61,599 bases of DNA from the UHGV virus genome UHGV-0127988; one strand, written 5' to 3'. Each line of letters opens with the position of its first letter. Within the stretch, counting starts at the first letter, position 1. Under the pieces are notes generated by a model. That model saw only the letters and a program-made list of their open reading frames with translations. It made no database searches and was not told where the DNA came from. A program made the position numbers and the translations under genes. This stretch comes from a virus. This document shows positions 12,601 through 35,161 of the stretch, in pieces.

Positions 12601-15600
12601 ACGCCGTTATCGATAAAAATGCGATCCAGCAGCTATCAAAAAGAGGGGTGGCAAATGCCGAAACCACGAACGTATCAGATGAGCGCAGTGCGCAGCCTGA
12701 AGTTTCTCAGGTCGCGCAATCTGATAACGCGCCAGCAGTACAACCAGATGAAAGCGGAGCTGCTGCACAGTCCGAGCGAGTGGCATCCAATACCGACCAG
12801 CCTGCTGCCGGTAGCGGAGCTGATGCTATTTCTGGACGTACAACCGCCGACACCGACCCTTCACTGAACAAAGACGGCAGTCAGAAATGGTTCGGTACCG
12901 AGCGGAAGGCGAACGAGTACCTGCAGAAGAAAGGTATCACCGGCACGCATGAAATCCGCCTGGTGGATCGTCGCTTCGAAATCCACGCCAAAGGCCAGGA
13001 TGTCAACCAGACGACCGAAACTGTCAACCAAACTGCCGATAATGTTAAGCCAGCGACCAAAAGCGTCAAAGGCAAGAACGGGCCGCGCTACAACCGTGTG
13101 AAGAAGCTGCTGGGCGCTGAAGAGGGCGATATCGTCACTCCGCAGGAGGATATCGGCTATACCACCGCTGGTAGGCAGTACCGCATTTACCAGATCGAGA
13201 AGAACGGTATTGTTCACCTGACCAACCTCGAAACCAATGGCGGCACTACGGTTAGCCTGGCAGACCTGGAGCGTGCCAATTCCCGCAGATCGGGCTTTAA
13301 CCGTGTTGAGGCTGTTGCTGAACCAGCACCGGCGGCACAGGAACAGCAACAAAGCGAACCAGAGGCCGAAGAGAAAACTGCATCTACCCAAACCAGGAGC
13401 GAAAAAAACGTTGCTGCTACGGATGCGGATCGCTTCTCCGGTAACAAGCTGTTTACCGCTGATAAAGTCGCCGCTGCGCGCGCCCGAATGAAGTCGAAAT
13501 TTGGCCAATTGAACAGCGGCCTGGATCCTGAGCTGCTGATTGATGGGATGACTATTGCGGGAGCTTACATCGAGAGCGGTGTTCGCAAGTTCTCTGATTA
13601 TGCAAAATCGATGGTCGATGACTTCGGTGCCGACGTTAAGCCCTACCTGCTGTCATTCTGGGAAGGCGCTCGCAACTATCCAGGCCTGGATACCGAAGGC
13701 ATGACCAGTGTCGAGCAGAGTGCTAAAGAGCATGCTGCGCTGATGCAGCCGGAGGAAACCAAAACCCCGGCAGTGGGAGAGGTGCAGGCGAAGCCTGCAA
13801 GCCGCACGCGTAAGACTGGTAAAGCTGGAGATATGACTATCACCCAGGATTGGGGCGTAGAGCATATTGACGGTTACGGGGAAAACTCATCTGGTCGGGA
13901 AACAGGCAGTGACCTGAAAGACGCGTTCCTGAAGGAAGCCCGCAAATACCTAAACACCGTTGCTGACCAGCTGGAGGATGCAGGCTTTAAACCGACCACA
14001 AACGCAAAAGGTAAGTTTGTTGGGGCTGTGAGTGTCAATGCTGGCGGTGATGCTGTTTCCGGCGATGTAAACCTGGTGATGGATGGTCCGAACGGAATAG
14101 GTGTTTATATCCACATCGGTGGTACATCGTTGCGCGGAGTGGTTCCCACTACCGATAGCGGCATCGGCATTATGATGCGCACCACCACGCCAGAGGACAA
14201 ATACGGCGCGAAATCGCAAAACCTATGGTCCCAGGTAAATATCTCTGCGACCGACATGGCTAAACAGGCTATCCTGTTAGTTGAAAAAAGAGTTGCAGCT
14301 GAGCAGCATAATCGGCAGCAGAACGAAAAATCCCAAGCCCGCGTTACCAATGGGCTTGATGACATGGTATCTAGTTTTGACCGTGAGGTAACACCGAATG
14401 AATCTCAACCACTGGGTGAGCCAGGCGAGGGATCACTGGAAACAGCACCAGCCGACGCTATTCGCGCAGCTGAAAGCGAAGAACCAGCTGGGCAACGCTC
14501 TCCGCGAAGCAGCGGAGAAGACGTATCAGGAAGTGAGCGAGCTGGAGGCTCAGGGCTTCAGCGAGCACGAAGCGTTCGAGATGACGCGGGAGAAGTACCT
14601 GTTTCCACCGGAAGAGGCGAGCCTGCAGGACAGCGAAACCAATCCGGCAGCAGCCAGGATGCAGGACGTAATGCGGATCGTGAACAGCCAGTACGGGGAC
14701 AGCGACCAGCCGCAGGAACAGTAGCGGAAGACCGCCCGGCGCGCGCATTCAACATCGATGCGGACGAGATCGGCAAGGGCGGTAAGAAAACGAAGTTTCG
14801 CAATAACGTCGCGGCAATTCGCCTGCTGAAAGACCTGGAGCGCATGAACCGCCAGGCCACGCAGGAAGAGCAAGCCATCCTCGCCAAATACGTTGGTTGG
14901 GGCGGTATCCCGGAAGCATTCAAGCGCACTGACGGCAGCGCCACCAGCGGCTGGGCGAAAGAGGTCGCGGAGCTGGACGAAATTCTGCAGCCGGAAGAGT
15001 ACCAGGCCGCCGCGTCGTCCACCAAAAACGCCCACTACACCAGCCCGGAGATCGTTTCCGGCATGTGGCAGGCAATGCAGCGCCTGGGCTTCACCGGTGG
15101 ACGCGTGCTTGAGCCGTCTGTCGGCGTGGGTAACTTCTTTGGCCTGATGCCTTCAGACGTGCGCAGCGCGTCAGCGCTCCACGGCGTCGAGCTTGACCGC
15201 ATCACCAGCGGCATAGCTACCCAGCTTTACCCGGAGGCGAAGATCGCCCGCATGGGGTACCAGGACTACGTTATTCCAAATGGCTATTTTGACATCGCAA
15301 TCGGCAACCCGCCGTTCGGTGCTGATAAGCTGTACGATGGCCGCCGCAAAGACCTGTCAGGTTTCAGCATCCATAACTACTTCTTCGCCCGTACCGTCGA
15401 TGCCCTGCGCCCTGGTGGCGTCATGACTATGGTTGTAACGAACCGGTTTATGGATGGGGCGAGCGATAAGGCGCGCCAGTACATTGCCGACCGTGCCGAC
15501 CTGCTGGGGGCTATCCGCCTGCCAAATGACGCCTTTGCGAAAAACGCCGGCACCCAGGTGACGACCGATATTATCTTCCTGCGCAAGCGTCTGCCGGATG

Positions 15601-18600
15601 AAACGCCAAGCGCTATGAACAGTTCCTGGCTTGAAACCGTCGATTTCACCGACAAAAACGGCAAGGTCGTGCCGCTGAACAAATATTTCGTCATGCATCC
15701 TGAAAACATGCTGGGCGAGTTCGGAGCTTTCGGATCGATGTACCGTGAAGGCGACTCGGCGCTGATTGCGCGCGAGGGGCAAAATACCTCGCAGCTGCTG
15801 GGTGAGGCTATTCAGCGTCTGCCGGAAAACATCATCAAGCCGGTGGAAGCTGTGAAGCCAGAAAGCCGCGCCAGCGTGGTGGCAGAGAATGCCCGCGTGG
15901 GTTCCGTCTTCCTGGATGGCGATAACGTCATGATGCGTGACAGCGACGAGCTGGGCGAATCCCGCGCTACGGCGGTCAGCTTCCCGAACGAGAAAGCAAA
16001 AGCCCGCGTCGTCGGCATGATCGGCGTTCGTGACGAGCTGGCGGCGCTGCGCAAGCTGCAGCTGGATCCGAAGGCGGACGATGCAGCTATCGAGTCAGCC
16101 CGCAAGCGTCTGAACCGCGCCTATGACGCTTTCGTTAAAGAGCATGGCTATCTGAACCAGGACGCGAACAAGCGCTTACTGCGTGACGATCCGACCTGGC
16201 CGCAGCTGGCAGCGCTGGAAGACGATTTCGATAAGGGGCTTTCTGCTACTGTCGCCAAAAAGACCGGCGAGGAAGCCCGCCAGCCGAGCGCGAAGAAGGC
16301 CGCTATCTTCAGTCGCCGCACCCAGTCACCATATACCGCGCCCACCAGCGCGGCGACCGCGAAGGATGCCCTCGTTACCTCGCTGGCCGAAAAAGGCCGC
16401 GTTGACATGGAGCTGATGGCGAACCTGTACGGCAAGGAAGAAAGCCAGATTATCCGCGAACTGGATGACCTGGTTTATTCCGATCCGGAAAAAGGCTGGG
16501 TGACGCGCGAAGAATACCTGTCCGGCAACGTGAAAACGAAGCTGGCGCGTGCCCGCGAGAGGGCGATGACCGATGCCGCTTTCAACCGCAACGTTGAAGC
16601 GCTGGAGGCCGTACAGCCGAAAGATATCGAGGCGGTGGATATTAACGTTAAGCCTGGGGCCACCTGGCTACCGGCTGACACGATGGGCGCGTTTGCCGAC
16701 ATGATTGCGGAAACCAGCGGCGCGAAGGCATTCTATAACCCGGTTAGCGCCAAATGGTCATTCCCAGGCCTGGCGTCGTCGGCGGCAGCGCAAACCCGCT
16801 ACGGTACCGACCGCGCGGATGTTCGCACAATCCTCGAAGCAGCTGCGTCGCAGAAGGCGATCCAGATTTTCGATAACCACCGCGACGGCACCCGCACGCT
16901 GAACGAGACGGAAACCCAGCTCGCTAACGACAAGGTGAACGCGGTCAAGGAAGCATTTGGCCGCTGGATCTGGTCTGACGATGCTCGCCGCCAGTCGCTG
17001 GCGCGTATCTATAACGACCAGTTCAATACCGATGTGCCGCGTGAATATGACGGTTCTCACCTGACATTCCCCGGCAAAATCTCCGATGACATTATCCGTC
17101 TGCGTCCGCACCAGGCTAACGCCGTCTGGCGAATTGTGCAGGGCGGTACCACTCTGGCGGATCACGTAGTCGGCGCGGGCAAGACCTTCACCCTGATTGC
17201 TGCAGCGATGGAGTTGCGCCGGATGGGCCTGGCGCGGAAACCGCTGTTTGCGGTGCCGAACCACCTGGTAGGGCAGTGGGCGACTGACTTTGTGAAGCTG
17301 TATCCCGGCGCGAAGGTGCTGGCCGCCACGAAGCGCGATTTTGAGAAGGAAAACCGTAAAAAGCTGTTCGCCCGTATCTCTACCGGTGACTGGGACGCGG
17401 TGATCGTTGCTCACTCGTCGTTTGGCAAGGTGCAGGTAGACCCGGAGCACGAAGCCGAGTTTATCCGCGAGCAGATTGACGATCTGACATCCTCTATCGA
17501 GGCTATCCGGGAGGCTGAAGGCCAAAGCAGCCGCAACGTGAAGGATGCTGCAAAGCGCCGCGATGCACTGAAAGAACGACTGAAAAAGCTGGTGGACAGC
17601 GAAAACAAGGATGATTCCCTGTACTGGTCAGAGCTGGGCGTCGATGCGCTGTTTGTCGATGAAGCGCACGAATTTAAGAACCTGGCTTACTCCACCAGCA
17701 TGCGTAACGTCGCAGGCCTGGGCGATGCGTCCGGCAGTCAGCGCGCGATGGACATGTTCATGAAGGTCCGCCACGTCCTGAAGGCTACCGGCGGCCGGAA
17801 CGTTGTGTTTGCGACCGGTACGCCGATCAGCAACACGATGGCTGAGATGTACACCATGCAGCGCTACATGGATTACGACAACCTGAAGGCGCAGGGGCTT
17901 TCCCACTTCGACGCCTGGGCGCGCATGTTTGGTGAGGTTGTCACCGACTGGGAGCTTTCGCCGTCTGGCAAGTACAAGATGACCGCGCGTTTTGCGAAAT
18001 TCGTGAACATGCCTGAGCTGATGCAGCGTTACACCTCGTTCGCGGACGTTATCAACCGCGACGACATTAACCGCCAGCTGGCCGCCCAGGGCAAAAAGCT
18101 GCCGGTGCCGAAGATGAAGGGCGGGAAGCCGACCAACATCGTTGTGCCGCGCAGCAGCATGCAGGCAACCTATATCGGGGAGCCAATCACGGATAACAAC
18201 GGCATCGAGCAGTATCCGCAGGGATCGCTGGTCTACCGCGCCGAGCACCTGCCGAAGAAGGCAGAAAAGGGCGCGGACAACATGCTCAAAATCATGAGTG
18301 ACGCCCGCAAGGTGGCGCTGGATATGCGCCTCATCGAGCCAGGCGCGCCAGACTTTGAGCGCAGCAAGACCAATGAGGCCGCCCGCCGCATCAAAGAGGA
18401 CTACGATAAGTGGGCCGATGACCGTGGCGCACAGCTGGTGTTTATCGATCTCTCGACGCCAAAGAACGCCAAAACAGCAGAGGCTGCCAGAATCCGTGAC
18501 CTGGTAGAGAAGGCCGAGCAGGGTGACGAGGCCGCCGCCGAGCAGCTGGACAAACTCAGTCCGGACGAGCTGGCCGCGCTCGATGGCGAATTCTCCGTCT

Positions 18601-21600
18601 ACGATGACCTGAAACAGAAGCTGGTGGCGCTGGGCATCCCGGAAAACGAGATCGCCTTCATTCACGACGCTAAAACCGAGCTACAGAAAGAAGAGCTGTT
18701 CGGGAAGGTTCGCTCTGGCCGTGTTCGCGTTCTGCTGGGTTCAACGTCGAAGATGGGCGCTGGTATGAACGTGCAGGATCGCCTGGTTGCGCTTCACCAC
18801 CTCGATGCTCCGTGGCGTCCGTCCGACCTGGAACAGCGTGAAGGGCGCATTATCCGCCAGGGTAACAAGCTCTATGACCGCGATCCGGAAGGCTTCGAAG
18901 TCGGCGTTTACCGCTATGCGACGAAACAGACCCTCGATAGCCGCATGTGGCAGACCCTGGAGGCGAAAGCCCGCTTTATCGAGCAGGTTCGCAAGGGTAA
19001 CACCGCGCAGCGCGAAGTTGAGGATATTGGCGGCGAGGCTGCAAACGCGGCAGAAATGAAAGCGGCATCGAGCGGCAACCCTCTCATCCTGGAAGAGATG
19101 ACCCTGCGCCAGAAAATGCGCCGCCTGGAGAACGAGCGCGCCGGTTTCGACCGCGATCAGTATCGTATCCGCGATACCATCCAGCAGCAGCGCCGTAAAG
19201 CCGAGTGGATGGCGAAGTCTCTGGACGAGCTGCGCCAGGACGTAAACCTGTCGGTGCCGGACAAGTTCGCTATGACCATCAACGGCCAGGAGCTGGAAAA
19301 GCGTAAGGACGCAGGCGAAGCGTTACTGTCTATCGCTGCCGATATGGAGCACAACCACAGCGATGAGCGCCAGATCGGCCAGTACGGCGATTTCCCGATG
19401 AGCATGGAGCGCACCAGCGCCGAGCAGTTCACCATCAACCTGGAGGGCGCTGGTTCCTATACCGTCAATTTCGGTATCGGTGCCGACCCGCTGGGACTGA
19501 CGATGCGTATCAGCAACGCCGTGAAGGATTTGGGCGACGCTATCACCGTCATGGAGCAGGGCCGCGAGAAGGCGCTGGCAGAGATCCCGAAACTGCAGGA
19601 GCAGCTGGCGGAATGGCCAAAAGCGCAGGAGCTGAAAGACACCCGTAAGCGTCATGCCGAAGTGGTGGACCAGCTGAAGCCGAAGAAGGCCGAAAAGCCT
19701 GCCGAAAGTGTTGCTGCCCCGGCAACGCAAGAGCCGAAACCGCAATACTCCGTTGCGACTAACCGCGCTGTTCGTGGTGCCCTGGCGCGCGGAGATGCCG
19801 GTGCGCTGGTGGCGAAACTGCAGAAAGATGGGCGGATCGTTATTCACGACACGCCGCCGGAAAACCGCCGTGCTGACGCTGCCGGTTGGGTAGATCCTGA
19901 CGGAAGTATCCACCTGGCGCTGTCGAACCTGACAGCAGAAACGGCGCAGCCGGTGCTGATGCATGAGCTGTTCCACTCTGGCATGAACGCAATCAGCGGT
20001 TCGCCGCGCTGGAACAACCTTATTTCCCGCCTCAATGAGTACGTGGAGGCCGCCAGCCGTCGCGAGGGCCGCGAAACCGCATGGGATCGCGCCTATACCC
20101 GTATCGAGCAGAGCGAGGAAGGCAGTCGCCGCGCTGAAGAGCTGGGCGCGTATGCCGTCGAGCACTTCGAGCAGATGCCTCCTGGCATCCGGAAGTGGGC
20201 CGAAACCGTGATCGGTACCGTGAAAAACTGGGTGCAGCAGCGGTTTGGTGTGCAGCTGGGCGAAGTTACTCCATCACAGCTTCGCGCGCTGGCCGCCGGT
20301 GCCGTCCGTAACCAAAGCCCCGTAAAAGGGGCCACGGAGACGGCTTACAGCATGAAGCCGGGCGAAGCCAAGAAAGAGGCGGAAGCCTTCTATGGCAAGA
20401 AGATTGACGCAACCCGCGATCTGACCGGCGACGCCCTTACCGCTGCCATGCCGACGCTGCTGCACTGGACGCCTGGCCGCTTCCTGCTGAAGCGCGTGGC
20501 GAAGGATATCCCGGCGCTGGGCGAATACGCCGACATTAAGCTGAAGATGGACACGTTCCGCGATGAATGGCACGCGCTCACCGATAAACTGGCGCAGCGC
20601 TGGCAGAAGTACCGGGCCAAGAACGCTGCCGAGAACAGCCAGCTGATGCAGATCATGCATGAGTCCACGCTGGCGCAGGCTGACCCGTCCGAGAAGTTCG
20701 AAAGCCGCCTGAATGGTGCGGACCTGAAGATCCTCCGGAACAAGAAAACCAGCAGCGATGAATGGCAGCAGGCCAACAAAAAGGCGATGGATGAGTCTGC
20801 CCGCGAGAAGGAATGGACGAGGCTGAATGCCGAGTTCCAGAAGCTGTCTCCGGAAGGTCAGGCGCTCTACCGCGACGTTCGCGACCTGTACAGCAAGCTC
20901 GCCAACACCCAGGAGGCGATCATAGTCGCCAACCTGGAAAAAGCGATGGAGTTCCGCATTAAGGAAGCCCAGCGCGAATTTGAGGACGAGATGCAGGCCA
21001 TCAACGACGAGGGGTTGAAGGGAGAGGATCGCGAAAAAGCCATTACGGCCGCCAAGAAGAAACTCGATAACGCCCGCCGCCGCGATGCGTGGAACCGACG
21101 CGCCCGCGTTAACCAGCTGCGCCAGGAGTTCGAAAGCAACCGCCTGGCCGGGCCTTATTTTCCGCTGGCGCGCTTCGGTGATTACTTCGTCACCGCCCGC
21201 AACAAAAAGACCAATGAGATCGAGGTATTCTCCCGCCAGGAGACGCCTTTCCAGCAGTCTCGCGTAGCGAAGGAGCTGCGTAAGCAGGGGTTTGAGGTTG
21301 AAACTGGTCTGATTTCGAAGACCGCAGAGCTGCGCAAGCAGGTTCCGGCGGAGTTCGTTGCGCGTATCGAGGACATTCTGAAGGGACTGCCAGCCGCGAA
21401 AGAGACGCAGGATCAGGTCTGGCAGCTCTACCTGGAGCGCATGCCGGATATGTCACTGCGCAAAAACCGGATCCACCGTAAAGGCCGAGCCGGTTTTGAA
21501 GAGGATGCGCTGCGTGCGTTCGCCTCTCACATGTTCCACGGCGCACACCAGACCGCCCGCATGAAGTTTGCGATGGATCTGCAGGACCAGCTGGACGAGG

Positions 21601-23216
21601 CGAAGCGCCAGACCAAATATACCCGCAACCCGACACGTAGCGGGCTGGTGCTGGAGCAGGCCGAGAAGAACCACCAGTACGTCATGAACCCGACCAGCAA
21701 CCGCATTGCGCAGGTCGCCACCCAGGGCGCGTTTATGTGGTACCTGGCACAAAGCCCGGCGGCGGCGCTGGTGAACATGGGGCAGACCGTGATCGTCGCA
21801 CCGTCCAAACTGGCCGCATTCTACGACAAGGGAACCGCGCGGGGCATGGCGGTAGCGCTGGGGCAAATCAATAAGGCGATGTTTGACCTTGCCAACGGGC
21901 GCACCTTCGCAGAGCAGTCGCGCCGCGTTACCCCGCAGGAAAAAGCGGCCGTCAGTGAGGCATACCGGATCGGGCTTATCACCCGTACCCAGTCTCATGA
22001 TGTGGCGGGCATTGCGGATAGCGGCATCAAATACCGCCCGACGCGCGCCCGCATCATGGCGGCTATGTCGTTCATGTTCCACCATACTGAGCGCATCAAC
22101 CGCGAAGCGACGTTCCTCGCCGCGTACCGGATTGCGCGTAAGCGTGGCCTGGATCACCAGAACGCGATCCGGAAGGCGTCAGAGCTGACCTGGGATTCCC
22201 ACTATGACTACCAGAACAGCAGCCGCCCGGCGGTGATGCACAGCAATACCGGCAAAGCGCTGCTGGTGTTCCGCAACTACTCGCTGAACATGATTTCGGA
22301 TCTGGCTTACACCACCTACGAGATCATCAACCCACGTAACGCGCAGGAACGTCGCGAGGCACGCACTCAGATGATTGGCCTGCTGGGGTCGCTGGCGTTC
22401 AATACCGGTATTCGTGGCCTGCCGCTGTTCGGCATGCTGATGGTCATCGCCGGTATGTTCTCCGACGATGGCGAGGATCCGGAAGTCGAGCTGAAAAAGA
22501 CCCTTCTCCAGTACCTGCCGCCGTCGATGGTCGGTATCATGATGGACGGCGTACCTGGCTATGCCTTCGGCGTCGAGCTGTCGGGCCGTATCGGCTTCGG
22601 GGATCTATGGTTCCGTTCCGATGACATGGACCGGGAAGGGGATTCCGCATACCTGTACTGGCTGCAGCAGCTGTTAGGCCCGGCATCATCCATTCCGTAC
22701 ACTGCCGTGCGCGGCATTAGCCAGATCCAGGACGGCTACACCTGGCGCGGGATGGAAAACCTGGTGCCGAAGGCAATCCGTGACCCGATGAAGGCCTACC
22801 GCTACTACAGCGAAGGCGTCACCACCAAAAATGGTGACCCTATCGTCGATGAGGTAGGCGGCTGGGACGTGCTCAAGCAGGCGATGGGCTTCACGCCAGC
22901 GCGTGTCACTGAGCAGTACAAGTTGAACAGCTACAACATGAACAAGCAGAAGACGATCACCGAGGAGCGGAGTAAGCTGCTGGGCGATTTTTATAAGGCC
23001 TGGAAAGCTGGTGATGAGAAGAAAGTGGACCAGATTACTGATAAGATGCGTGCATACTCTGAAAAGTACCCGGAAATGCGCATCGATGGTGATGCTGTCC
23101 GCAGTTCGCTTTCAAGACGTGAGAAATATCGCGGTCAAGCCCTGGGTGGCATGAACTATAACCAGAAGCTGATACCGCGTCTCCAGGAGGAGCAGCCTGG
23201 TAAGGTATATCGGTAG
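9618..23216 (+). CDS. Giant multidomain virion or ejection protein (4,532 aa). Domains in order: lytic transglycosylase (SLT), N6-adenine DNA methyltransferase, SNF2-family helicase, HExxH motif, C-terminal TM segments.
   Basis: GTG start with a GAGGAA ribosome-binding site. SLT motif LAEQESSFNP...GLMQY (aa about 60-90). MTase motif I VLEPSVGVGNFFG and motif IV NPPFG (nt about 15306). SNF2 motifs GAGKT (nt about 17172), DEAH (nt about 17658), helicase-C LLGSTSKMGAGMNVQD and QREGRIIRQG (nt about 18730-18865). HELFH at nt about 19961. Hydrophobic helices at nt about 22240-22470. Confidence 0.85.
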   Translation: MAKNSLPSELDLVQQPSYGLPDWAQRPQAQTVNTGGAVPFQAEFLSASQKYGVPFNVLMGLAEQESSFNPTAIGVPTKYGRAKGLMQYIDDTASRMGINPYDPVQSIDAAARQLRERLDKGYSMQEAVQAHFGGDDRAQWGPKTAQYGKDVLGRAEKFLGGGQSVAAGQLTQQQEQPQTRMGQIAQDYPPAQSAMENLDQTRQRTQALLDEMNKEEPGRYRPLTDEEMQRLSQHITPEMQQQAMQSGKPIEINIPDLVQPGQAVTAQQSQQQPEKRQAELKPWEPTLWERIKGLIPGNKDAATVEMIARDIANREGVSVEEVYKSMGGARPMWNPEGRAPIQALAEGAGIVGKQLPNVPSAVANASLRAVRGGDISADGSTMMDRVISATNVPQEENQDPNYQSVSGIDQSLGFSLSNMVPSIAAGAAGNVVSPGVGTGAGFATSAAIAYRASKDQFLDDVKKKAETEKGSKLTEKEWETLKDTSEAAAMKYGAWEAIPEALSNVIALKMISHPLVGATRAARIADAAKRLGKEQIAEQVTETATTLGQNEAEREVGLSNEKMSVADAFRQQAIQTALVSGIQGGTMQAGRAIYDRVRGNRAASTEERPTTDPSAQPEATATDPAQEAQPEQAATPTAEQPQEAQPSGPLGRAVQNGTQQVVNDVAAQAEQNTAAAENHTSDEFMGPVGSETTVHPADDPNDSFPAVVQGYRNGNAIVVDENGEILEFGPHEVVRPDAAADVVQQQPEQEVTEPVQQTEKATEEQPRQPKAVSEMTEPELRDRLKYLHQQAKSFGGWNERLTKARREVEKAIDAKNAPVQGEIDTEAVQANGLTPSENRRLKELLNKDSRTQAESAEATRLNEKSRASLTEEVPQSTNENTVGAEGMTLVHGSGNGNLTLDDIQIVRANGQKQGKKGRVYGGFYGTSEKDSAQAEGYAGMMEGTPTVYDVKIKPGTKVFQKEGDITRLSENTINDLVSKGYGVVVGTDPRGRTEYAVIDKNAIQQLSKRGVANAETTNVSDERSAQPEVSQVAQSDNAPAVQPDESGAAAQSERVASNTDQPAAGSGADAISGRTTADTDPSLNKDGSQKWFGTERKANEYLQKKGITGTHEIRLVDRRFEIHAKGQDVNQTTETVNQTADNVKPATKSVKGKNGPRYNRVKKLLGAEEGDIVTPQEDIGYTTAGRQYRIYQIEKNGIVHLTNLETNGGTTVSLADLERANSRRSGFNRVEAVAEPAPAAQEQQQSEPEAEEKTASTQTRSEKNVAATDADRFSGNKLFTADKVAAARARMKSKFGQLNSGLDPELLIDGMTIAGAYIESGVRKFSDYAKSMVDDFGADVKPYLLSFWEGARNYPGLDTEGMTSVEQSAKEHAALMQPEETKTPAVGEVQAKPASRTRKTGKAGDMTITQDWGVEHIDGYGENSSGRETGSDLKDAFLKEARKYLNTVADQLEDAGFKPTTNAKGKFVGAVSVNAGGDAVSGDVNLVMDGPNGIGVYIHIGGTSLRGVVPTTDSGIGIMMRTTTPEDKYGAKSQNLWSQVNISATDMAKQAILLVEKRVAAEQHNRQQNEKSQARVTNGLDDMVSSFDREVTPNESQPLGEPGEGSLETAPADAIRAAESEEPAGQRSPRSSGEDVSGSERAGGSGLQRARSVRDDAGEVPVSTGRGEPAGQRNQSGSSQDAGRNADREQPVRGQRPAAGTVAEDRPARAFNIDADEIGKGGKKTKFRNNVAAIRLLKDLERMNRQATQEEQAILAKYVGWGGIPEAFKRTDGSATSGWAKEVAELDEILQPEEYQAAASSTKNAHYTSPEIVSGMWQAMQRLGFTGGRVLEPSVGVGNFFGLMPSDVRSASALHGVELDRITSGIATQLYPEAKIARMGYQDYVIPNGYFDIAIGNPPFGADKLYDGRRKDLSGFSIHNYFFARTVDALRPGGVMTMVVTNRFMDGASDKARQYIADRADLLGAIRLPNDAFAKNAGTQVTTDIIFLRKRLPDETPSAMNSSWLETVDFTDKNGKVVPLNKYFVMHPENMLGEFGAFGSMYREGDSALIAREGQNTSQLLGEAIQRLPENIIKPVEAVKPESRASVVAENARVGSVFLDGDNVMMRDSDELGESRATAVSFPNEKAKARVVGMIGVRDELAALRKLQLDPKADDAAIESARKRLNRAYDAFVKEHGYLNQDANKRLLRDDPTWPQLAALEDDFDKGLSATVAKKTGEEARQPSAKKAAIFSRRTQSPYTAPTSAATAKDALVTSLAEKGRVDMELMANLYGKEESQIIRELDDLVYSDPEKGWVTREEYLSGNVKTKLARARERAMTDAAFNRNVEALEAVQPKDIEAVDINVKPGATWLPADTMGAFADMIAETSGAKAFYNPVSAKWSFPGLASSAAAQTRYGTDRADVRTILEAAASQKAIQIFDNHRDGTRTLNETETQLANDKVNAVKEAFGRWIWSDDARRQSLARIYNDQFNTDVPREYDGSHLTFPGKISDDIIRLRPHQANAVWRIVQGGTTLADHVVGAGKTFTLIAAAMELRRMGLARKPLFAVPNHLVGQWATDFVKLYPGAKVLAATKRDFEKENRKKLFARISTGDWDAVIVAHSSFGKVQVDPEHEAEFIREQIDDLTSSIEAIREAEGQSSRNVKDAAKRRDALKERLKKLVDSENKDDSLYWSELGVDALFVDEAHEFKNLAYSTSMRNVAGLGDASGSQRAMDMFMKVRHVLKATGGRNVVFATGTPISNTMAEMYTMQRYMDYDNLKAQGLSHFDAWARMFGEVVTDWELSPSGKYKMTARFAKFVNMPELMQRYTSFADVINRDDINRQLAAQGKKLPVPKMKGGKPTNIVVPRSSMQATYIGEPITDNNGIEQYPQGSLVYRAEHLPKKAEKGADNMLKIMSDARKVALDMRLIEPGAPDFERSKTNEAARRIKEDYDKWADDRGAQLVFIDLSTPKNAKTAEAARIRDLVEKAEQGDEAAAEQLDKLSPDELAALDGEFSVYDDLKQKLVALGIPENEIAFIHDAKTELQKEELFGKVRSGRVRVLLGSTSKMGAGMNVQDRLVALHHLDAPWRPSDLEQREGRIIRQGNKLYDRDPEGFEVGVYRYATKQTLDSRMWQTLEAKARFIEQVRKGNTAQREVEDIGGEAANAAEMKAASSGNPLILEEMTLRQKMRRLENERAGFDRDQYRIRDTIQQQRRKAEWMAKSLDELRQDVNLSVPDKFAMTINGQELEKRKDAGEALLSIAADMEHNHSDERQIGQYGDFPMSMERTSAEQFTINLEGAGSYTVNFGIGADPLGLTMRISNAVKDLGDAITVMEQGREKALAEIPKLQEQLAEWPKAQELKDTRKRHAEVVDQLKPKKAEKPAESVAAPATQEPKPQYSVATNRAVRGALARGDAGALVAKLQKDGRIVIHDTPPENRRADAAGWVDPDGSIHLALSNLTAETAQPVLMHELFHSGMNAISGSPRWNNLISRLNEYVEAASRREGRETAWDRAYTRIEQSEEGSRRAEELGAYAVEHFEQMPPGIRKWAETVIGTVKNWVQQRFGVQLGEVTPSQLRALAAGAVRNQSPVKGATETAYSMKPGEAKKEAEAFYGKKIDATRDLTGDALTAAMPTLLHWTPGRFLLKRVAKDIPALGEYADIKLKMDTFRDEWHALTDKLAQRWQKYRAKNAAENSQLMQIMHESTLAQADPSEKFESRLNGADLKILRNKKTSSDEWQQANKKAMDESAREKEWTRLNAEFQKLSPEGQALYRDVRDLYSKLANTQEAIIVANLEKAMEFRIKEAQREFEDEMQAINDEGLKGEDREKAITAAKKKLDNARRRDAWNRRARVNQLRQEFESNRLAGPYFPLARFGDYFVTARNKKTNEIEVFSRQETPFQQSRVAKELRKQGFEVETGLISKTAELRKQVPAEFVARIEDILKGLPAAKETQDQVWQLYLERMPDMSLRKNRIHRKGRAGFEEDALRAFASHMFHGAHQTARMKFAMDLQDQLDEAKRQTKYTRNPTRSGLVLEQAEKNHQYVMNPTSNRIAQVATQGAFMWYLAQSPAAALVNMGQTVIVAPSKLAAFYDKGTARGMAVALGQINKAMFDLANGRTFAEQSRRVTPQEKAAVSEAYRIGLITRTQSHDVAGIADSGIKYRPTRARIMAAMSFMFHHTERINREATFLAAYRIARKRGLDHQNAIRKASELTWDSHYDYQNSSRPAVMHSNTGKALLVFRNYSLNMISDLAYTTYEIINPRNAQERREARTQMIGLLGSLAFNTGIRGLPLFGMLMVIAGMFSDDGEDPEVELKKTLLQYLPPSMVGIMMDGVPGYAFGVELSGRIGFGDLWFRSDDMDREGDSAYLYWLQQLLGPASSIPYTAVRGISQIQDGYTWRGMENLVPKAIRDPMKAYRYYSEGVTTKNGDPIVDEVGGWDVLKQAMGFTPARVTEQYKLNSYNMNKQKTITEERSKLLGDFYKAWKAGDEKKVDQITDKMRAYSEKYPEMRIDGDAVRSSLSRREKYRGQALGGMNYNQKLIPRLQEEQPGKVYR

Positions 23217-24716: not shown

Positions 24717-25279
24717 CTATCCCGTCCCTTATCTCCGCAAAAATAACCGCCGCAATGTGCATTATCTGCACATTATTGGGGTGTCTCGCCGTGTGGTATG
24801 TGCAGGAATTGCGCATTGACGCAAAAACATCATCCCTCAACTCAGCGCACGCTGAAGAGAAGGCGAAGTGGGACCGCGAGAAGATAGCGATCACCACCAA
24901 AGCCCAGCAGGATACTGCCGAAGCCCTGGAGCGCCAGAAACAGGCCCAGGCCGCCGCCGCTGCTGCCGATAAAGAAGCCCAGGAGAAATTAGCAAATGCC
25001 GAACGTGAAAATGCTGCTCTGCGCTATGACGTTGCCACTGGCAATAAGCGGGTGCGGCTCCTTGAAGCAAACCTCGCCACAGCCAACCTTGCAGCCCGTC
25101 AGCACGCCGCAGGCGGAAGTACCAGCGCCAGCAGCGTGGGCGATGGAGAAGGAGCCGAGCTTACTGCCGAAGCTGGATCAGTTGTTCTCGATATCCGGGC
25201 CGGAATCCAGCGACGGGAAACCAAAATAGAGTACCTGCAGAGCTACATCAATGATGTAGTGAAGCAGTGCAAACGGTAA
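24713..25279 (+). CDS. rz: Rz-like i-spanin
   Basis: N-terminal TM helix, coiled coil, and an RYDVATGNKRVRL motif typical of Rz. Confidence 0.75.
   Translation: MTIPSLISAKITAAMCIICTLLGCLAVWYVQELRIDAKTSSLNSAHAEEKAKWDREKIAITTKAQQDTAEALERQKQAQAAAAAADKEAQEKLANAERENAALRYDVATGNKRVRLLEANLATANLAARQHAAGGSTSASSVGDGEGAELTAEAGSVVLDIRAGIQRRETKIEYLQSYINDVVKQCKR
24996..25229 (+). CDS. rz1: Rz1-like o-spanin lipoprotein embedded in the +1 frame of Rz
   Basis: Lipobox LAISGC and a Pro-rich mature part. Fully nested in the Rz gene. Confidence 0.7.
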   Translation: MPNVKMLLCAMTLPLAISGCGSLKQTSPQPTLQPVSTPQAEVPAPAAWAMEKEPSLLPKLDQLFSISGPESSDGKPK

Positions 25280-25324
25280 GCAGCGATGCTATAGTTACTT
25301 TGCCTGAACAACATCCCATTGCTC

Positions 25325-25349
25325 GACTTCCATGCCCGCCGCCCAGCGG
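25325..25349 (+). terminator. Rho-independent terminator of the lysis operon
   Basis: GCCCGC-cgccca-GCGGGC followed by CTTTTTTT. Confidence 0.7.
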
Positions 25350-25350
25350 G

Positions 25351-25388
25351 CCTTTTTTTGTTCTAAATTTGCAATCATTCGTTCTACT
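25351..25388 (+). promoter_or_regulatory. Duplicate of the immunity-region PR-like promoter/operator (TTGCAA-N18-TATATT), rightward
   Basis: GTTCTAAATTTGCAATCATTCGTT is near-identical to GTTGCTAAATTGCAATCATGCGTT at 34794-34817 in the cI/cro intergenic region. Confidence 0.45.
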
Positions 25389-25766
25389 ATGCTATATTTT
25401 CACCGTTGTACGTTGCATGGCACATGTGACGTTAGCGGTCTGAACGGGCCTTTGCTTCCATCATCCCCGTAGCAGGTAGCCGGAATGTGCAAGCCGCGTG
25501 TTTACCCGGCACGAACGAGCGATTCACCATCGTGGCGATACGGTGTGGCACCCTGGAAGCAGACAGGGGACAACAGGTAAGTGATTCCAGATAGGGTTGC
25601 GACTCTAACTGTTAATAGCAGGGGTATCACTTTCCGTTGTGGCAATTGCGGCTATGCGCACGCGGCGAGGCCAAACCATTCAACGTTAAAAATGAATGCG
25701 TTCTTAATAGTGTGACGCCGCCGGGTCTGGCCGTTCCGGCAGGTGGAGGCACCACCGCCACAACGC

Positions 25767-25847
25767 ATAACGCAGGGCATCTTTCAGGAACTCCATCTCT
25801 CAATGAGGTTTTGGCGTTAAATCAGCCTGGAGGGTGCCCTGCGTTAT
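25767..25847. repeat. Perfect 13-bp inverted repeat (ATAACGCAGGGCA / TGCCCTGCGTTAT) separated by 55 nt, within the attP candidate region
   Basis: Read directly from the sequence. Noncoding region between the lysis module and int. Confidence 0.5.
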
Positions 25848-25955
25848 GGCGCGGTATCCATAACAGTCGTTTGATTGGTCTATTCGCCCTGGCGGGGTCT
25901 TCCACCAACCACACAGGAGGAAGAGGATAAATGTTCTGACCGCCAGGGTCGCTTT

Positions 25956-27221
25956 TTAGGCCGCTTCAGTACCGGCGATGACCGTCAACCTGGGCGGCGT
26001 CTTGTCCCGGATCATGTCCCGCACGAACTTATCCCAAATCTCCATCGCCTCGCGCTTCTCTGCCATGTATGAATAGCGGTCATAGTGCTTCGAGCTGACA
26101 CCAGCCCGGCTATGGTTCTGCAGCCTGTCCCTTATTTCTTGGGTTAATCCGGCCTTGCCTGCCAGGGTTTTGAACGTTCTGCGGCAGTCCCTATTGGTGA
26201 AATGCGGGATAACTCCCCGGTCGCGCTGACGCCAAAGGAATGAATAAAGCGTCGAGTGCTGCACAGGCTTAGAAGGGTCTTTATCACCAGGGAAGTACCA
26301 GCCGAACTCGTTGGGCGTAATGCTATCCAGCAGCTCGATAGCCAGGCCGGGCAGGGGGATGGCATGCGGGCGGCCGTTCTTGGTTTTCTGCCAGTCGATA
26401 ATGCCTTCATCACGGCTGAATTGGTCAACGTGCAGGGTGCATATCTCCTGGACCCTTTGTCCGGTCAGTAAAAGCAACTGCATTGCTTTGGGGTATGACG
26501 GGTGAACATCAACGTCTGGATATTCAAGCCAGCGCCATAGCTTCACCCACTCCTCTTCTCGCAGCCAGCGCTCACCAGAAACTTTCGGCTCAGTGGGGAT
26601 ATCAGCTGCCGGATTATGCACGATATTGAATCGGCGCGGACTTGAGCTGCGATAATCCAGCTCAGAACGCAGACCCCAGCCGTAGGCGCTGCGAATATAT
26701 GATCGAACGTGGTCACTCATAGATTTCGCCCCACGCTCATAAATAGGACGCAGGACGTTCAGCACGTCAATCGGCTCGATATCTCGCGCCAAGCGGTTGC
26801 GCCCCAGCTCATCGGCAATCTTGTTCAGTCCCTTTCTGGCCTCCTTGTGGCTGGACTTTCCGCTATCCCGTAGCCAGTCCGCATAGGCTTCAAAAAGGTC
26901 GCCCACGGTGCCTGGCCGGGTATCGCCCTGGACCTTGATCGATGCCCCCTTATTGATGGTGGCGGAAAAGTCGCGGGTGAATACCTCGCGGGCATCCGCC
27001 AGGGTCATGTGCGGGTACTCGCCCAGCTTCTTCAGCTTGCGCTTCCCGTCGCGCCACTGCTGAGCGAACCAGTTCGACGTGACGCGGGTCGGCATAGGCT
27101 TAATGACCAGCACAAGGCGTCCGGTGCCGCGCCCTTCGCCGTCTGGCAGGGTTTCAGGTTTCTGTGATTTGGCGACGCGTTTCAGTGCGTTTTTTATCTG
27201 TCCGTCCGTGAGTGCTGGCAT
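25956..27221 (-). CDS. int: Tyrosine integrase, P4-type
   Basis: N-terminal arm-binding-like region. Catalytic-core motifs ...TGQRVQEI..., NRDCRRTF, HSRAGVSSKHYDRYS (Tyr nucleophile). Confidence 0.85.
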   Translation of the reverse strand: MPALTDGQIKNALKRVAKSQKPETLPDGEGRGTGRLVLVIKPMPTRVTSNWFAQQWRDGKRKLKKLGEYPHMTLADAREVFTRDFSATINKGASIKVQGDTRPGTVGDLFEAYADWLRDSGKSSHKEARKGLNKIADELGRNRLARDIEPIDVLNVLRPIYERGAKSMSDHVRSYIRSAYGWGLRSELDYRSSSPRRFNIVHNPAADIPTEPKVSGERWLREEEWVKLWRWLEYPDVDVHPSYPKAMQLLLLTGQRVQEICTLHVDQFSRDEGIIDWQKTKNGRPHAIPLPGLAIELLDSITPNEFGWYFPGDKDPSKPVQHSTLYSFLWRQRDRGVIPHFTNRDCRRTFKTLAGKAGLTQEIRDRLQNHSRAGVSSKHYDRYSYMAEKREAMEIWDKFVRDMIRDKTPPRLTVIAGTEAA

Positions 27222-27477
27222 TCTTCGGTAGTCCTCGCTGGTGGCAGTTAGGGGGTGGCTGGTGGTGCTGTAATTGGTGTTGGTTTGCCCGATGCACCCC
27301 GTTTATTGATCGGGAGCCGCTACCAGTCAATATCTTAAAAAAAGTCCGGTAATCAAAGGGTTTGAACGTGAACCAGCGTGAACTAAAAACTGGCAGTAGG
27401 GTGATTATGTACCACACTTACCCGTTCTAAATTCCGCTGTGTTTTCAAACCCTTTAGCCTGTTATGCCGCCTAACTG

Positions 27478-27572
27478 GTGTAGCGGACTGGTGCTGGTTT
27501 CGTTTTGACCTCTCGCATATTCCCGTTCAGCACCAGACCGTCACCAGCATTACCGCTACATATCTTTCAACG
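27478..27572. repeat. Long imperfect inverted repeat (CTGGTGTAGCGGACTGGTGCTGG ... CAGCACCAGACCGTCACCAGCATTACCGCTACA) upstream of int
   Basis: Read from the sequence. Nearby direct repeats of CGTGAAC at 27355-27375. Candidate Int/IHF arm sites or a structured element. Confidence 0.35.
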
Positions 27573-27624
27573 CCAGGCCGATGCAAATCAGGGCTGAATT
27601 GCGATGAGGATATCCAGCAGATCG

Positions 27625-27870
27625 CTACCCGTGAACACGCTCACCCCCACGCACATCGAACCAGTCTCCCCACATCACCGCTGAGCCACCACGAAAATCA
27701 GGCACGCCGTCGCGCAGCTGCTCCCTTCCGTCGCCAAACTTCCGGTACTGCGTCAGAAAACGCAGCTGCGGACCTCTCGGAAACCCGTCAACAATTACCG
27801 GCTCGACTGCCATCTGACGTTTCGCTGATTTGCGACCCCAGCGCTTCGCTTTGATATCTCGTTTACTCAT
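27625..27870 (-). CDS. Hypothetical basic protein (81 aa)
   Basis: ATG with an AGGATGG box 6 nt upstream. The ORF track extends it to 27954, but that start has no ribosome-binding site. Confidence 0.45.
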   Translation of the reverse strand: MSKRDIKAKRWGRKSAKRQMAVEPVIVDGFPRGPQLRFLTQYRKFGDGREQLRDGVPDFRGGSAVMWGDWFDVRGGERVHG

Positions 27871-34048: not shown

Positions 34049-34150
34049 ACATCCCCCTTTGTTGGTGGTGATTATGTGAGCGGTCATCATTTAACCGCTG
34101 CAATCCTGTGTTGCTATATTAGAACAATATATTTGAGAACAGCAACACTT

Positions 34151-34747
34151 TTAGGCGTGTTGCGTGAAATAAATCCTACGAACCCAATCGACTTTCATGC
34201 TCTGCCTGGCGATGCCCGCCGCGCCGGTGACGTTGTATGTCCCGCGCTGATAGCCCTTCGAAAGCGTGCCGATTATCTTGTCTCCGCCCTCGACGTGCGC
34301 CACGCAGTAGCTGCCGATCTCGTCGCTGGCATCCACCCTTGGGCCGACAAAGAACACCCATCCATCCAGAAAGGAGAACGGCGTATTCGCTGTGCGGGCC
34401 TGTATAGCTACGGTATCCGGCGGCAGGTCTGCTATCGGAAGTGGCACCCGTTCCCGAACGTCATCGGGGACAGGGGAGACGGTCAAATCCCCTTTCAGGA
34501 AGCCGATCACTTTGGCGTACTTCCGCTCACCCCGCACTTCCTCGATACCGGCATTCACCATGACCTCAACCACCGGTACGCCGAGCATTCTGGCGATGGT
34601 TGCGGCTTCTGCCAGCTGCATGCGCCGGTACCCGCCGAACGTTCTGGAGAGCTGGGACGGTGAGCAGTTCATTTCCCTGGCGATAGCCCGAAGGGAGATC
34701 CGGCGATCTTTCATCAGGTCGTCAAAATATTTTTTGTTCACAGGCAT
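34151..34747 (-). CDS. cI: CI-like repressor (N-terminal HTH_XRE; C-terminal domain without an S24 Ser/Lys motif)
   Basis: GGGAGG ribosome-binding site. HTH ISLRAIAREMNCSPSQLSRTFGG. Divergent to a cro-like gene. Confidence 0.65.
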   Translation of the reverse strand: MPVNKKYFDDLMKDRRISLRAIAREMNCSPSQLSRTFGGYRRMQLAEAATIARMLGVPVVEVMVNAGIEEVRGERKYAKVIGFLKGDLTVSPVPDDVRERVPLPIADLPPDTVAIQARTANTPFSFLDGWVFFVGPRVDASDEIGSYCVAHVEGGDKIIGTLSKGYQRGTYNVTGAAGIARQSMKVDWVRRIYFTQHA

Positions 34748-34794
34748 ACGCGCCTCCCGGTACTTCACTTTGGATCACGTTCCTACCCGTTGCG

Positions 34795-34832
34795 TTGCTA
34801 AATTGCAATCATGCGTTTGCTTTTGGCATTAT
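34795..34832 (+). promoter_or_regulatory. PR-like promoter (TTGCAA-N18-CATTAT) overlapping a TTGC-N6-GCAA operator-like palindrome
   Basis: Read from the sequence in the cI/cro intergenic region. TTGCTAAATTGCAA at 34795-34808. Confidence 0.45.
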
Positions 34833-34876
34833 TTTTTGCCAACATAGTTGCTATGAGGACAACACGGCGAGGCAAC

Positions 34877-35161
34877 ATGAATTTTAAATCGATTAACGAC
34901 ATCACCCCGATCACGCTGCGGCAGTACCGCAAAGAGAAGGGCATTTCTCAGCGTGATTTTTGGGAGGCTATCCACGTATCGAAAGGTACGGGATGCCGGA
35001 TTGAAAGCGGGCAGAAGATACTGACGGATTCACTGCGTCTTCTGGTTCTTGAAACTTACGGGGAGAAAGATGATGCCGTGACCAAGGCAAGGAAATTACT
35101 TGCGGAGGCTGTAGCGCTTCTTTCGCCTGGCACACCAGAAGTCAATGAGGTGAAGAAATGA
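34877..35161 (+). CDS. cro: Cro/CII-like HTH regulator (94 aa)
   Basis: GAGG ribosome-binding site. HTH ISQRDFWEAIHVSKGTGCRIESGQ. Divergent from cI. Confidence 0.6.
   Translation: MNFKSINDITPITLRQYRKEKGISQRDFWEAIHVSKGTGCRIESGQKILTDSLRLLVLETYGEKDDAVTKARKLLAEAVALLSPGTPEVNEVKK

Follow-up and report, generated by a model that had tools for sequence, protein, structure and literature searches.

The stretch of DNA considered here, the 61,599-nt virus genome UHGV-0127988 (the whole of which we refer to as the window), is approximately a complete genome of a Lastavirus-type Klebsiella phage, with 93-98% identity to SopranoGao, vB_KpnP_ZX1 (ZX1 below), LASTA and SJM3 over the regions compared. Between its lysis cassette and the integrase gene int lies a segment of about 550 nt (roughly 25405-25957, plus strand) that we think is probably an autonomous noncoding unit, transcribed from a promoter at 25360-25398 into a modular folded RNA. 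The features of this part of the window are the following.

25334..25358, plus strand: intrinsic terminator of the lysis operon, a GC hairpin (25334-25351) plus T7, conserved in relatives
25360..25383, plus strand: copy 1 of a similarity to the immunity region (position corrected from the original prediction), consisting of GTTCT-N6-GCAAT (25360-25375), 5 nt and a third half-site, GTTCT
25369..25398, plus strand: putative sigma-70 promoter of the RNA unit, with -35 TTGCAA (25369-25374), an 18-nt spacer and the extended -10 TGCTATATT (25390-25398)
25416..25572, plus strand: RNA module A, a predicted fold of several helices with a pseudoknot between the hairpin loop UCACC and a downstream GGUG
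25570..25642, plus strand: bracket hairpin c, ACAACAGGTAAGTG ... CACTTTCCGTTGTGG, at which relatives have different, larger inserts
25636..25764, plus strand: RNA module B, with a predicted 7-bp closing stem GUUGUGG/CCACAAC adjoining a GGUGG-AGGCA-CCACC hairpin
25765..25886, plus strand: domain D, specific to Lastaviruses, including a 14-bp inverted repeat (25766-25779/25835-25848)
25887..25957, plus strand: module E, the predicted terminator, with arms CCCTGGCGGGGTC/GACCGCCAGGG (25887-25899 and 25938-25948) and then TTTTT over the int stop codon
25915-25920 and 25931-25939, plus strand: candidate minigene in module E, with the Shine-Dalgarno sequence (SD) AGGAGG and the two-codon open reading frame (ORF) ATG TTC TGA in the loop of the terminator hairpin
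25956..27221, minus strand: int, encoding a tyrosine integrase (Phage_integrase and Arm-DNA-bind_3 in Pfam), convergent with the RNA unit

The promoter, TTGCAA-18-TATATT with a TG before the -10, scored 9 of 12 matches in a promoter scan, and its hexamers are invariant in five Lastavirus relatives while the spacer diverges; we infer from it a start site near 25405. The lysis terminator upstream is predicted to shield the unit from late transcription. At the other end a terminator hairpin and TTTTT (25938-25957), missing from the original prediction, overlap the int stop codon, and a hairpin and T-run are retained in LASTA, ZX1 and two further relatives (L262 and L263), with altered sequence in two of the four. 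Because one terminator precedes the unit and its own terminator ends it at 25957, it would be insulated on both sides and about 550 nt in length. A promoter and an intrinsic terminator of its own, as for a structured noncoding RNA gene, are thus both present and both conserved in relatives. A noncoding transcript of about 560 nt had been proposed from the sequence, and we agree that there is no credible protein gene here, but the segment is better described as a structured RNA gene than as DNA without a function.

The plus strand of the unit folds with a z-score of -4.9 relative to shuffled sequence, and the minus strand with -2.4. For module A, seven proposed helices, including the pseudoknot, were counted on an alignment of 29 sequences (A1), and 90% of cells formed standard pairs, as compared to 24-44% in slid controls. 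Fourteen pairs had changed on both sides; examples include a C-G pair (16 sequences) that is U-A in 13 others, a C-G pair (17) that is G-C in 10, and, in the pseudoknot, C-G (27) replaced by A-U (2). None of 500 shuffles reached the observed values for four of the five measures, and 5 of 500 did so for the remaining one, the number of further standard pair types. Module B has, in addition to its closing stem, an internal helix (CGYGRCG/CGYCGC) and a pseudoknot in which RGCCA pairs with the loop UGGCY of a later hairpin; 94% of its cells were paired, versus 30-60% in slid controls, and 9 pairs changed on both sides (A2, 17 sequences). At least five complementary bases were found for this pseudoknot in 54 of 56 distinct sequences, a value that none of 500 shuffles of the partners reached, and its variants include GGCCA/UGGCC, AGCCA/UGGCU, GACCA/UGGUC and GGCAU/GUGCC. 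Helices containing the fetch patterns are invariant by construction and were given no weight, and compensatory change was judged for A and B only, domains D and E being represented by few divergent sequences. Judged by these comparisons, modules A and B are predicted pseudoknotted folds backed by compensatory base changes. The end of module B, where the 7-bp closing stem comes right after a 5-bp hairpin, looks like the acceptor/T-arm half of a tRNA, a likeness that we take as a resemblance only.

Both modules are widespread outside the Lastaviruses. BLAST of the region identified two blocks, 25417-25579 and 25630-25764, that recur at 67-80% identity in unrelated phages, including the plasmid prophages D6, P1 and P7, SPN1S and phiV10 (epsilon15-like) and the lambdoid phages mEp390 and LLS, nearly always in gaps without annotation. 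Exact copies of a 19-mer of module A were found in more than 120 IMG/VR contigs among the matches listed, and the same was true of a 27-mer of module B. The RNA query matched 1317 of 5426 complete E. coli genomes, with 468 places on plasmids, and no annotated feature lay beneath the genome matches among those listed at the top. In phage P1 a complete module A (1428-1598 of locus L260; about 70710-70880 of AF234173.1) lies in the 286-nt gap between trnI and ban and is unannotated in a record with 534 features. We found no description of these folds in the literature on prophage small RNAs (Pas, STnc6030), the put RNA, the P1 ban region or structured phage RNAs, a literature in which sequences as such cannot be searched; catalogues of prophage small RNAs from enterohaemorrhagic E. 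coli or Salmonella may list fragments of them under other names.

The arrays appear to be built from exchangeable parts. Lastavirus relatives differ by whole cassettes whose points of insertion coincide exactly with conserved ACAAC...GTTGTGG stems. A tRNA-Arg(TCT) directly follows the CCACAAC of module B in LASTA and ZX1, the latter of which also has an additional 5' module, and the RNA region of SopranoGao is longer by about 230 nt and includes a tRNA-like element. The SopranoGao element (GTGGTGTAGCTCAGGGTAGTAGAGCG..., about 3230-3330 of locus L003, after module B) is called a tRNA neither by Rfam nor in the record and could represent a tRNA cassette that is degenerate or of an unusual kind. 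Of 236 distinct arrays, 59 (25%) include tRNAs on the same strand (CAT 32, TCT 27, TGA 7), and none includes a tRNA on the opposite strand. In the window itself ARAGORN detected no tRNA or tmRNA cloverleaf, and no Rfam 15 family matched at its gathering threshold, with noise only at E below 10 in 25200-26100; on ten related loci Rfam returned tRNAs only. From these comparisons the RNA unit in the window belongs, as far as sequence can tell, to a family of phage RNA arrays, of which it is a version without a tRNA.

Modules A and B are found away from int in SPN1S, where they lie between terminase and portal, in the lambdoid phages mEp390 and LLS, where they are in the leader of the leftward promoter (PL), in P1, where module A is upstream of ban, and in D6. 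Even among Lastavirus relatives an extra ORF separates the RNA from int in ZX1, LASTA and L263, and the RNA unit survives in LASTA despite the loss of the repressor gene and of most of int. As for LASTA and SJM3 more generally, both keep the right operator region (OR) and cro, their repressor gene is replaced by unrelated sequence and their int is truncated to 273 nt, and this loss fits their reported lytic behaviour. The integrase of the window has its own oddity in that its nearest relatives in a one-genome-per-species collection (L247-L255; 65-69% identity) are all from Alphaproteobacteria, which is unexpected for a Klebsiella phage; no tRNA gene adjoins these relatives, and the exact protein is found only on free 61.6-kb phage contigs. 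A further observation of this kind is that 9618-23216 of the window is a single ORF of 4532 codons that is annotated in relatives as a PLxRFG protein and matches SLT, Eco57I-like, helicase and LPD39 domains.

Whether the RNA promoter is under the control of the phage repressor is a separate question. The idea came from a reported near-identity between two 24-nt segments, one beside the lysis terminator and one between the repressor gene and cro, from which both a shared operator and a matching pair of rightward TTGCAA-N18 promoters had been deduced. The features concerned are these.

27424..27433, plus strand: GTTCTAAATT, the same 10 nt with which copy 1 begins, over the -35 (TTTAGA) of a minus-strand promoter-like site upstream of int
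34110..34125, plus strand: OL-like site (OL being the left operator) just after the repressor stop codon, GTTGCTATATTAGAAC, with the reverse complement GTTCT-AATATA-GCAAC
34151-34747: repressor gene, the product of which has a helix-turn-helix of Cro/C1 type
34794..34817, plus strand: copy 2, in the repressor/cro intergenic region, GTTGC-TAAATT-GCAAT...
34868-35161: gene of the Cro-like protein

Copy 2, GTTGCTAAATTGCAATCATGCGTT, was found at the position first given for it; copy 1, GTTCTAAATTTGCAATCATTCGTT, exists as well but begins at 25360, 9 nt to the right of the 25351-25374 originally reported. A gapped local alignment of the two has 22 matches in 25 columns, with 1 mismatch and 2 single-base gaps (score 31), and nowhere else in the window does the cI/cro intergenic region (34748-34867) find a local match as good as copy 1. 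Of the two promoters, that of the RNA unit is good, whereas the proposed rightward promoter (PR), TTGCAA-18-CATTAT, has 8 of 12 matches only and was not returned by the promoter scan. One part of the match, ATCAT.CGTT, is not kept at the RNA promoters of SopranoGao and ZX1, whose OR is identical to that of the window.

The better evidence for repressor control comes from homologous operons. In SPN1S a 17-bp palindrome, ATTACC-N5-GGTAAT, is present three times after the repressor gene and two to three times between repressor and cro, and one perfect copy sits exactly over the -10/+1 of the RNA-operon promoter. The RNA of mEp390 comes after the repressor gene, with a promoter that has GTAAGATATCCTAC, a 14/14 reverse-complement copy of an OR site; LLS likewise has an ACTAAG-N4-CTTAGT family common to its immunity region and its RNA promoter. 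The PL operon of both these phages has OL operators and begins with the RNA, a layout that is also seen in an E. coli prophage, where the modules come first from PL. Going by these sites, the homologous RNA promoters in SPN1S, mEp390 and LLS are clearly tied to their own immunity operators. The analogy between SPN1S and the window is organisational only, because the window repressor has no detectable homology to the SPN1S repressor.

In the window the signs of the repressor-coupled control that had been proposed are weaker, consisting of half-sites and a short motif. RNA promoters of the relatives share GTTCT, N6, GCAA(T/C), N5, GTT(C/G)(T/C) and then TGCTATATT, with spacers that differ, and the SopranoGao/L263 variant, GTTCT-ATAGTT-GCAAC-AACTC-GTTGC, has half-sites shifted towards GTTGC/GCAAC. 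Copy 1 (GTTCT-N6-GCAAT) deviates from GTTGC-N6-GCAAC at 3 of 10 positions, and the GTTCT-N6-GCAAC of this variant is closer. The pattern GTT[GC][CT]-(A/T)6-GCAA[CT] occurs in the 61.6 kb only at 25360 (the RNA promoter), 34110 (after the repressor stop) and 34794 (OR), and the reverse complement of the 34110 site shares the architecture of the candidate operator at the RNA promoter. The motif T[GT]CTA[AT]ATT has 5 sites in the window versus 0.8 expected, all of them in regulatory gaps: two at the RNA promoter, one at the -35 of the promoter-like site of int (27424-27433), one at 34112 and one at 34796. The candidate operator spans -46 to -31, including the -35, with a second motif copy over the extended -10, and binding there would be expected to repress. 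Two further observations concern the immunity region. The 60-bp gap after the repressor stop (34091-34150) reads GTGTTGCT-N25-AGCAACAC and also has a plus-strand promoter-like TTAACC-18-TATATT with TG, which would read antisense into the repressor gene. In addition, the second-best match of OR is a 32-nt similarity (score 29) between 34760-34791 (plus) and 27385-27354 (minus), the two copies lying upstream of PR and immediately upstream of int, respectively; with its TTCAC-N5-(T/A)TCAC direct repeats, it looks like a shared site for a CII-type activator.

Several of our results weigh against the idea of an immunity-controlled RNA unit or limit what can be built on it. The start and the termination of the RNA are predicted only. 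When the cI/cro intergenic region was shuffled 300 times with its dinucleotides kept, 19 of the shuffles (~6%) reached the score of 31, as did 86 of 300 random real 119-mers from the window (~29%), and because of this the raw 24-nt similarity is within chance and no evidence by itself. The rarity of the motifs is overstated, because the patterns were defined after the sites had been seen. TGCTAWATT is the extended -10 and GCAA is part of the -35, such that promoter function alone could explain their conservation. A perfect 17-bp palindrome, GTTGC-N7-GCAAC, is strongly over-represented in the window, with 6 copies (6460, 19710, 29728, 37660, 42169 and 49035) versus 0.17 expected, 4 of the 6 being in short intergenic gaps where both flanking genes are on one strand; between PR and the cro start, 34847-34863 is a further copy with one mismatch. 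This palindrome may be a regulator site, possibly the true operator, or else an RNA hairpin signal, and it is absent from the RNA promoter. When 150 arrays were scanned automatically, recurring perfect palindromes were not enriched upstream of them (4/150) relative to controls (6/347), and for that reason family-wide repressor control rests on the three phages checked by hand; in P1, the C1 operator consensus was not found within 1.5 kb of the module A copy. Covariation of the operator in relatives is uninformative because all relatives share an identical OR. Finally, CRISPR interference with tciA, tciB, tciC, trnI and ban in P1 caused no plating defect (PMC10695390), a result that fits an accessory role for the RNA.

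The principal competitor to repressor control is that the promoter is constitutive, the unit being a moron expressed in the lysogen, and that its likeness to the immunity region reflects chance or generic promoter parts. We consider this a serious possibility, albeit one that we do not favor. In addition to the lack of significance of the similarity, the bases shared are the -35 TTGCAA, the extended -10 TGCTATATT and an A/T-rich stretch, the 24-mer of copy 1 is not a dyad, the abundant palindrome is missing, and a terminator upstream is what is seen in a classic insulated moron. Harder to accommodate are the retention of the half-sites GTTCT/GCAAY/GTTSY in two promoter variants with differing spacers, the movement of the second variant towards the GTTGC/GCAAC consensus, the presence of the 10-mer GTTCTAAATT on the promoter-like site of int in the opposite orientation relative to the promoter, and the operators that homologous operons clearly carry. 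On balance we give about even weight to the proposal that the immunity regulator of the phage itself binds the RNA promoter through GTTGC-type half-sites.

There are other readings of the locus. The original prediction had a repressor-controlled antisense or noncoding RNA running across the phage attachment site (attP) and into int, with sib-like or P2-like control of integration and excision. It is true that the RNA promoter and int are convergent, that int has no T-run terminator of its own past the shared hairpin and that L262 matches domains D and E at ~98% identity but int at only 81%; D and E must on this account be under strong constraint of some kind, and int read-through RNA would, for want of an int terminator, be antisense to the noncoding RNA and could form RNase III substrates. 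Antisense transcription into int is nevertheless not supported, because the plus-strand hairpin and T5 overlap nothing of int other than its stop codon (TAA). A sib- or P2-like role finds no support either, because the transcript ends at the int stop and the homologues are unlinked to int, and the survival of the RNA in LASTA despite a truncated int and an absent repressor gene also goes against it. We therefore regard such a role as quite improbable and the position of the RNA unit beside int as incidental. It is less easily dismissed, though still unlikely in our view, that D and E (25765-25957) are mainly attP and that the inverted repeat, which is real and 14 bp in length rather than 13 bp as first described, is a core- or arm-type DNA element and not RNA. 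The region adjoins the 3' end of int, as in lambda, domain D patterns were found in Lastavirus contigs only, and the conservation in L262 far exceeds that of int. On the other hand, when 25765-25960 and 27222-27640 were compared with E. coli genomes by BLAST, the outcome was either nothing or a prophage copy of the minigene element, and hence no host-gene match; the region is within the transcription unit, before the terminator; the sole substitution in the stem (A to G, in L263) keeps a G-U pair; and the 400-bp gap upstream of int (27222-27624) would serve equally well as a candidate attP. Both readings can hold together in any case, and domain D may be an RNA stem, part of attP, or both. That the conservation is protein-coding seems to us barely tenable. 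A 97-codon TTG ORF does exist (25637-25930), and hypothetical proteins are annotated over parts of the homologous regions in SopranoGao, ST11-OXA245phi3.2 and mEp390, but the ORF has no Pfam match, indels in relatives, among them some of 1 nt, break its frame, the substitutions in RNA helices compensate for one another, and the annotated ORFs vary in frame and position between phages. Module E does have a minigene of the bar type, with an SD, an AUG, one sense codon and a stop at 25915-25939; a 43-nt core of this element recurs at 93% identity in an E. coli prophage (2501-2542 of locus L261), in the leader of the PL operon.

Returning to the autonomous RNA unit that we favor, its transcript is probably a chain of independently folding RNA modules, of which A and B are members of a widespread, unannotated group of RNAs of enterobacterial phages that are mixed at CACAAC/GTTGTGG stems with rare-codon tRNAs (Ile2-CAU, Arg-UCU and Ser-UGA). 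By analogy with SPN1S, mEp390 and LLS, the RNA would be silent in lysogens and made immediately upon infection or induction. Cuts in the precursor at the bracket stems and at tRNA-like ends might then release stable RNAs, and these, along with the rare-codon tRNAs, could act in trans on host translation, on tRNA metabolism or on an RNA-targeting defence. Cleavage at the bracket stems and action in trans on host tRNA or translation, or on such a defence, are the speculative part of this picture and we consider them unlikely as they stand, the final step being a guess; self-cleaving or protein-sponging roles of the modules are no less likely. Our broader proposal, which is tentative, is that A and B represent two classes of pseudoknotted phage RNA not described before, which may process themselves or act as mimics or decoys of tRNA-like substrates, and that they belong to a cassette-built, repressor-controlled immediate-early operon with rare-codon tRNAs; the operon would be shared by P1-like, epsilon15-like, lambdoid and Lastavirus phages and be found in roughly one in four complete E. 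coli genomes.

Should the transcript prove real, two folds that are both very common and strongly conserved would have escaped annotation so far, even in P1 and in the E. coli genomes of RefSeq. The occurrence of these folds beside phage tRNAs, and behind operator-bearing early promoters in three phages, suggests an RNA-level function at the onset of infection, for which P1, the lambdoid phages and SPN1S would be tractable systems. For annotation, the gap between lysis genes and int in Lastavirus phages that are therapeutic candidates would be a gene as opposed to spacer or att DNA, and its variable inserts, including a tRNA, would be exchangeable cassettes.

There is precedent for several parts of this arrangement. 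The operators of P1 C1 are dispersed immunity operators outside OR/OL, and the single operator of SPN1S on an accessory RNA promoter far from the immunity region would, judging by its sequence, similarly link the RNA to the lysis-lysogeny decision; the candidate site in the window differs in that it consists of degenerate half-sites and is not a clean copy. The bar minigenes of lambda are two-codon ORFs with an SD near attP. The window element resembles them in having AGGAGG, 10 nt and ATG TTC TGA beside int and a possible attP, although its sense codon is UUC, not AUA, and the minigene is inside the loop of a terminator hairpin. Like ROOL and GOLLD (PMC12286853), the arrays are long, ornate phage noncoding RNAs with covariation support that are often beside tRNAs; those RNAs, however, come from Firmicute or rumen phages and form one large fold, whereas the RNAs described here are enterobacterial, consist of separable modules of 130-160 nt and have no Rfam match. 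The modules are the first RNA from PL in mEp390, LLS and the E. coli prophage, as is put in HK022 (PMC9378689), but a put-like role in antitermination was set aside because some units, those of SPN1S and the window, end in terminators without downstream genes; the modules are also far larger and pseudoknotted, and the distinction from put was made without a sequence comparison. As in the case of lambda sib, a structured RNA region lies directly downstream of int and int transcripts would enter it, the difference being that the structure here belongs to a convergent RNA that is separately promoted and terminated and whose modules occur elsewhere without int. A further parallel is with the phage tRNA operons, such as the T4 tRNA cluster (with the species 1 and 2 RNAs, rnaC/rnaD) and ileZ-argN-argO of Shiga toxin phages, in which stable RNAs are co-transcribed with tRNAs. 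The likeness lies in a single promoter, a polycistronic noncoding precursor and, in homologous arrays, the combination of rare-codon tRNAs with structured RNAs. The unit in the window is tRNA-less, modules A and B are related to the T4 RNAs neither by sequence nor through Rfam, and, as a feature that sets them apart, the arrays described here are assembled from cassettes exchanged at conserved stems.

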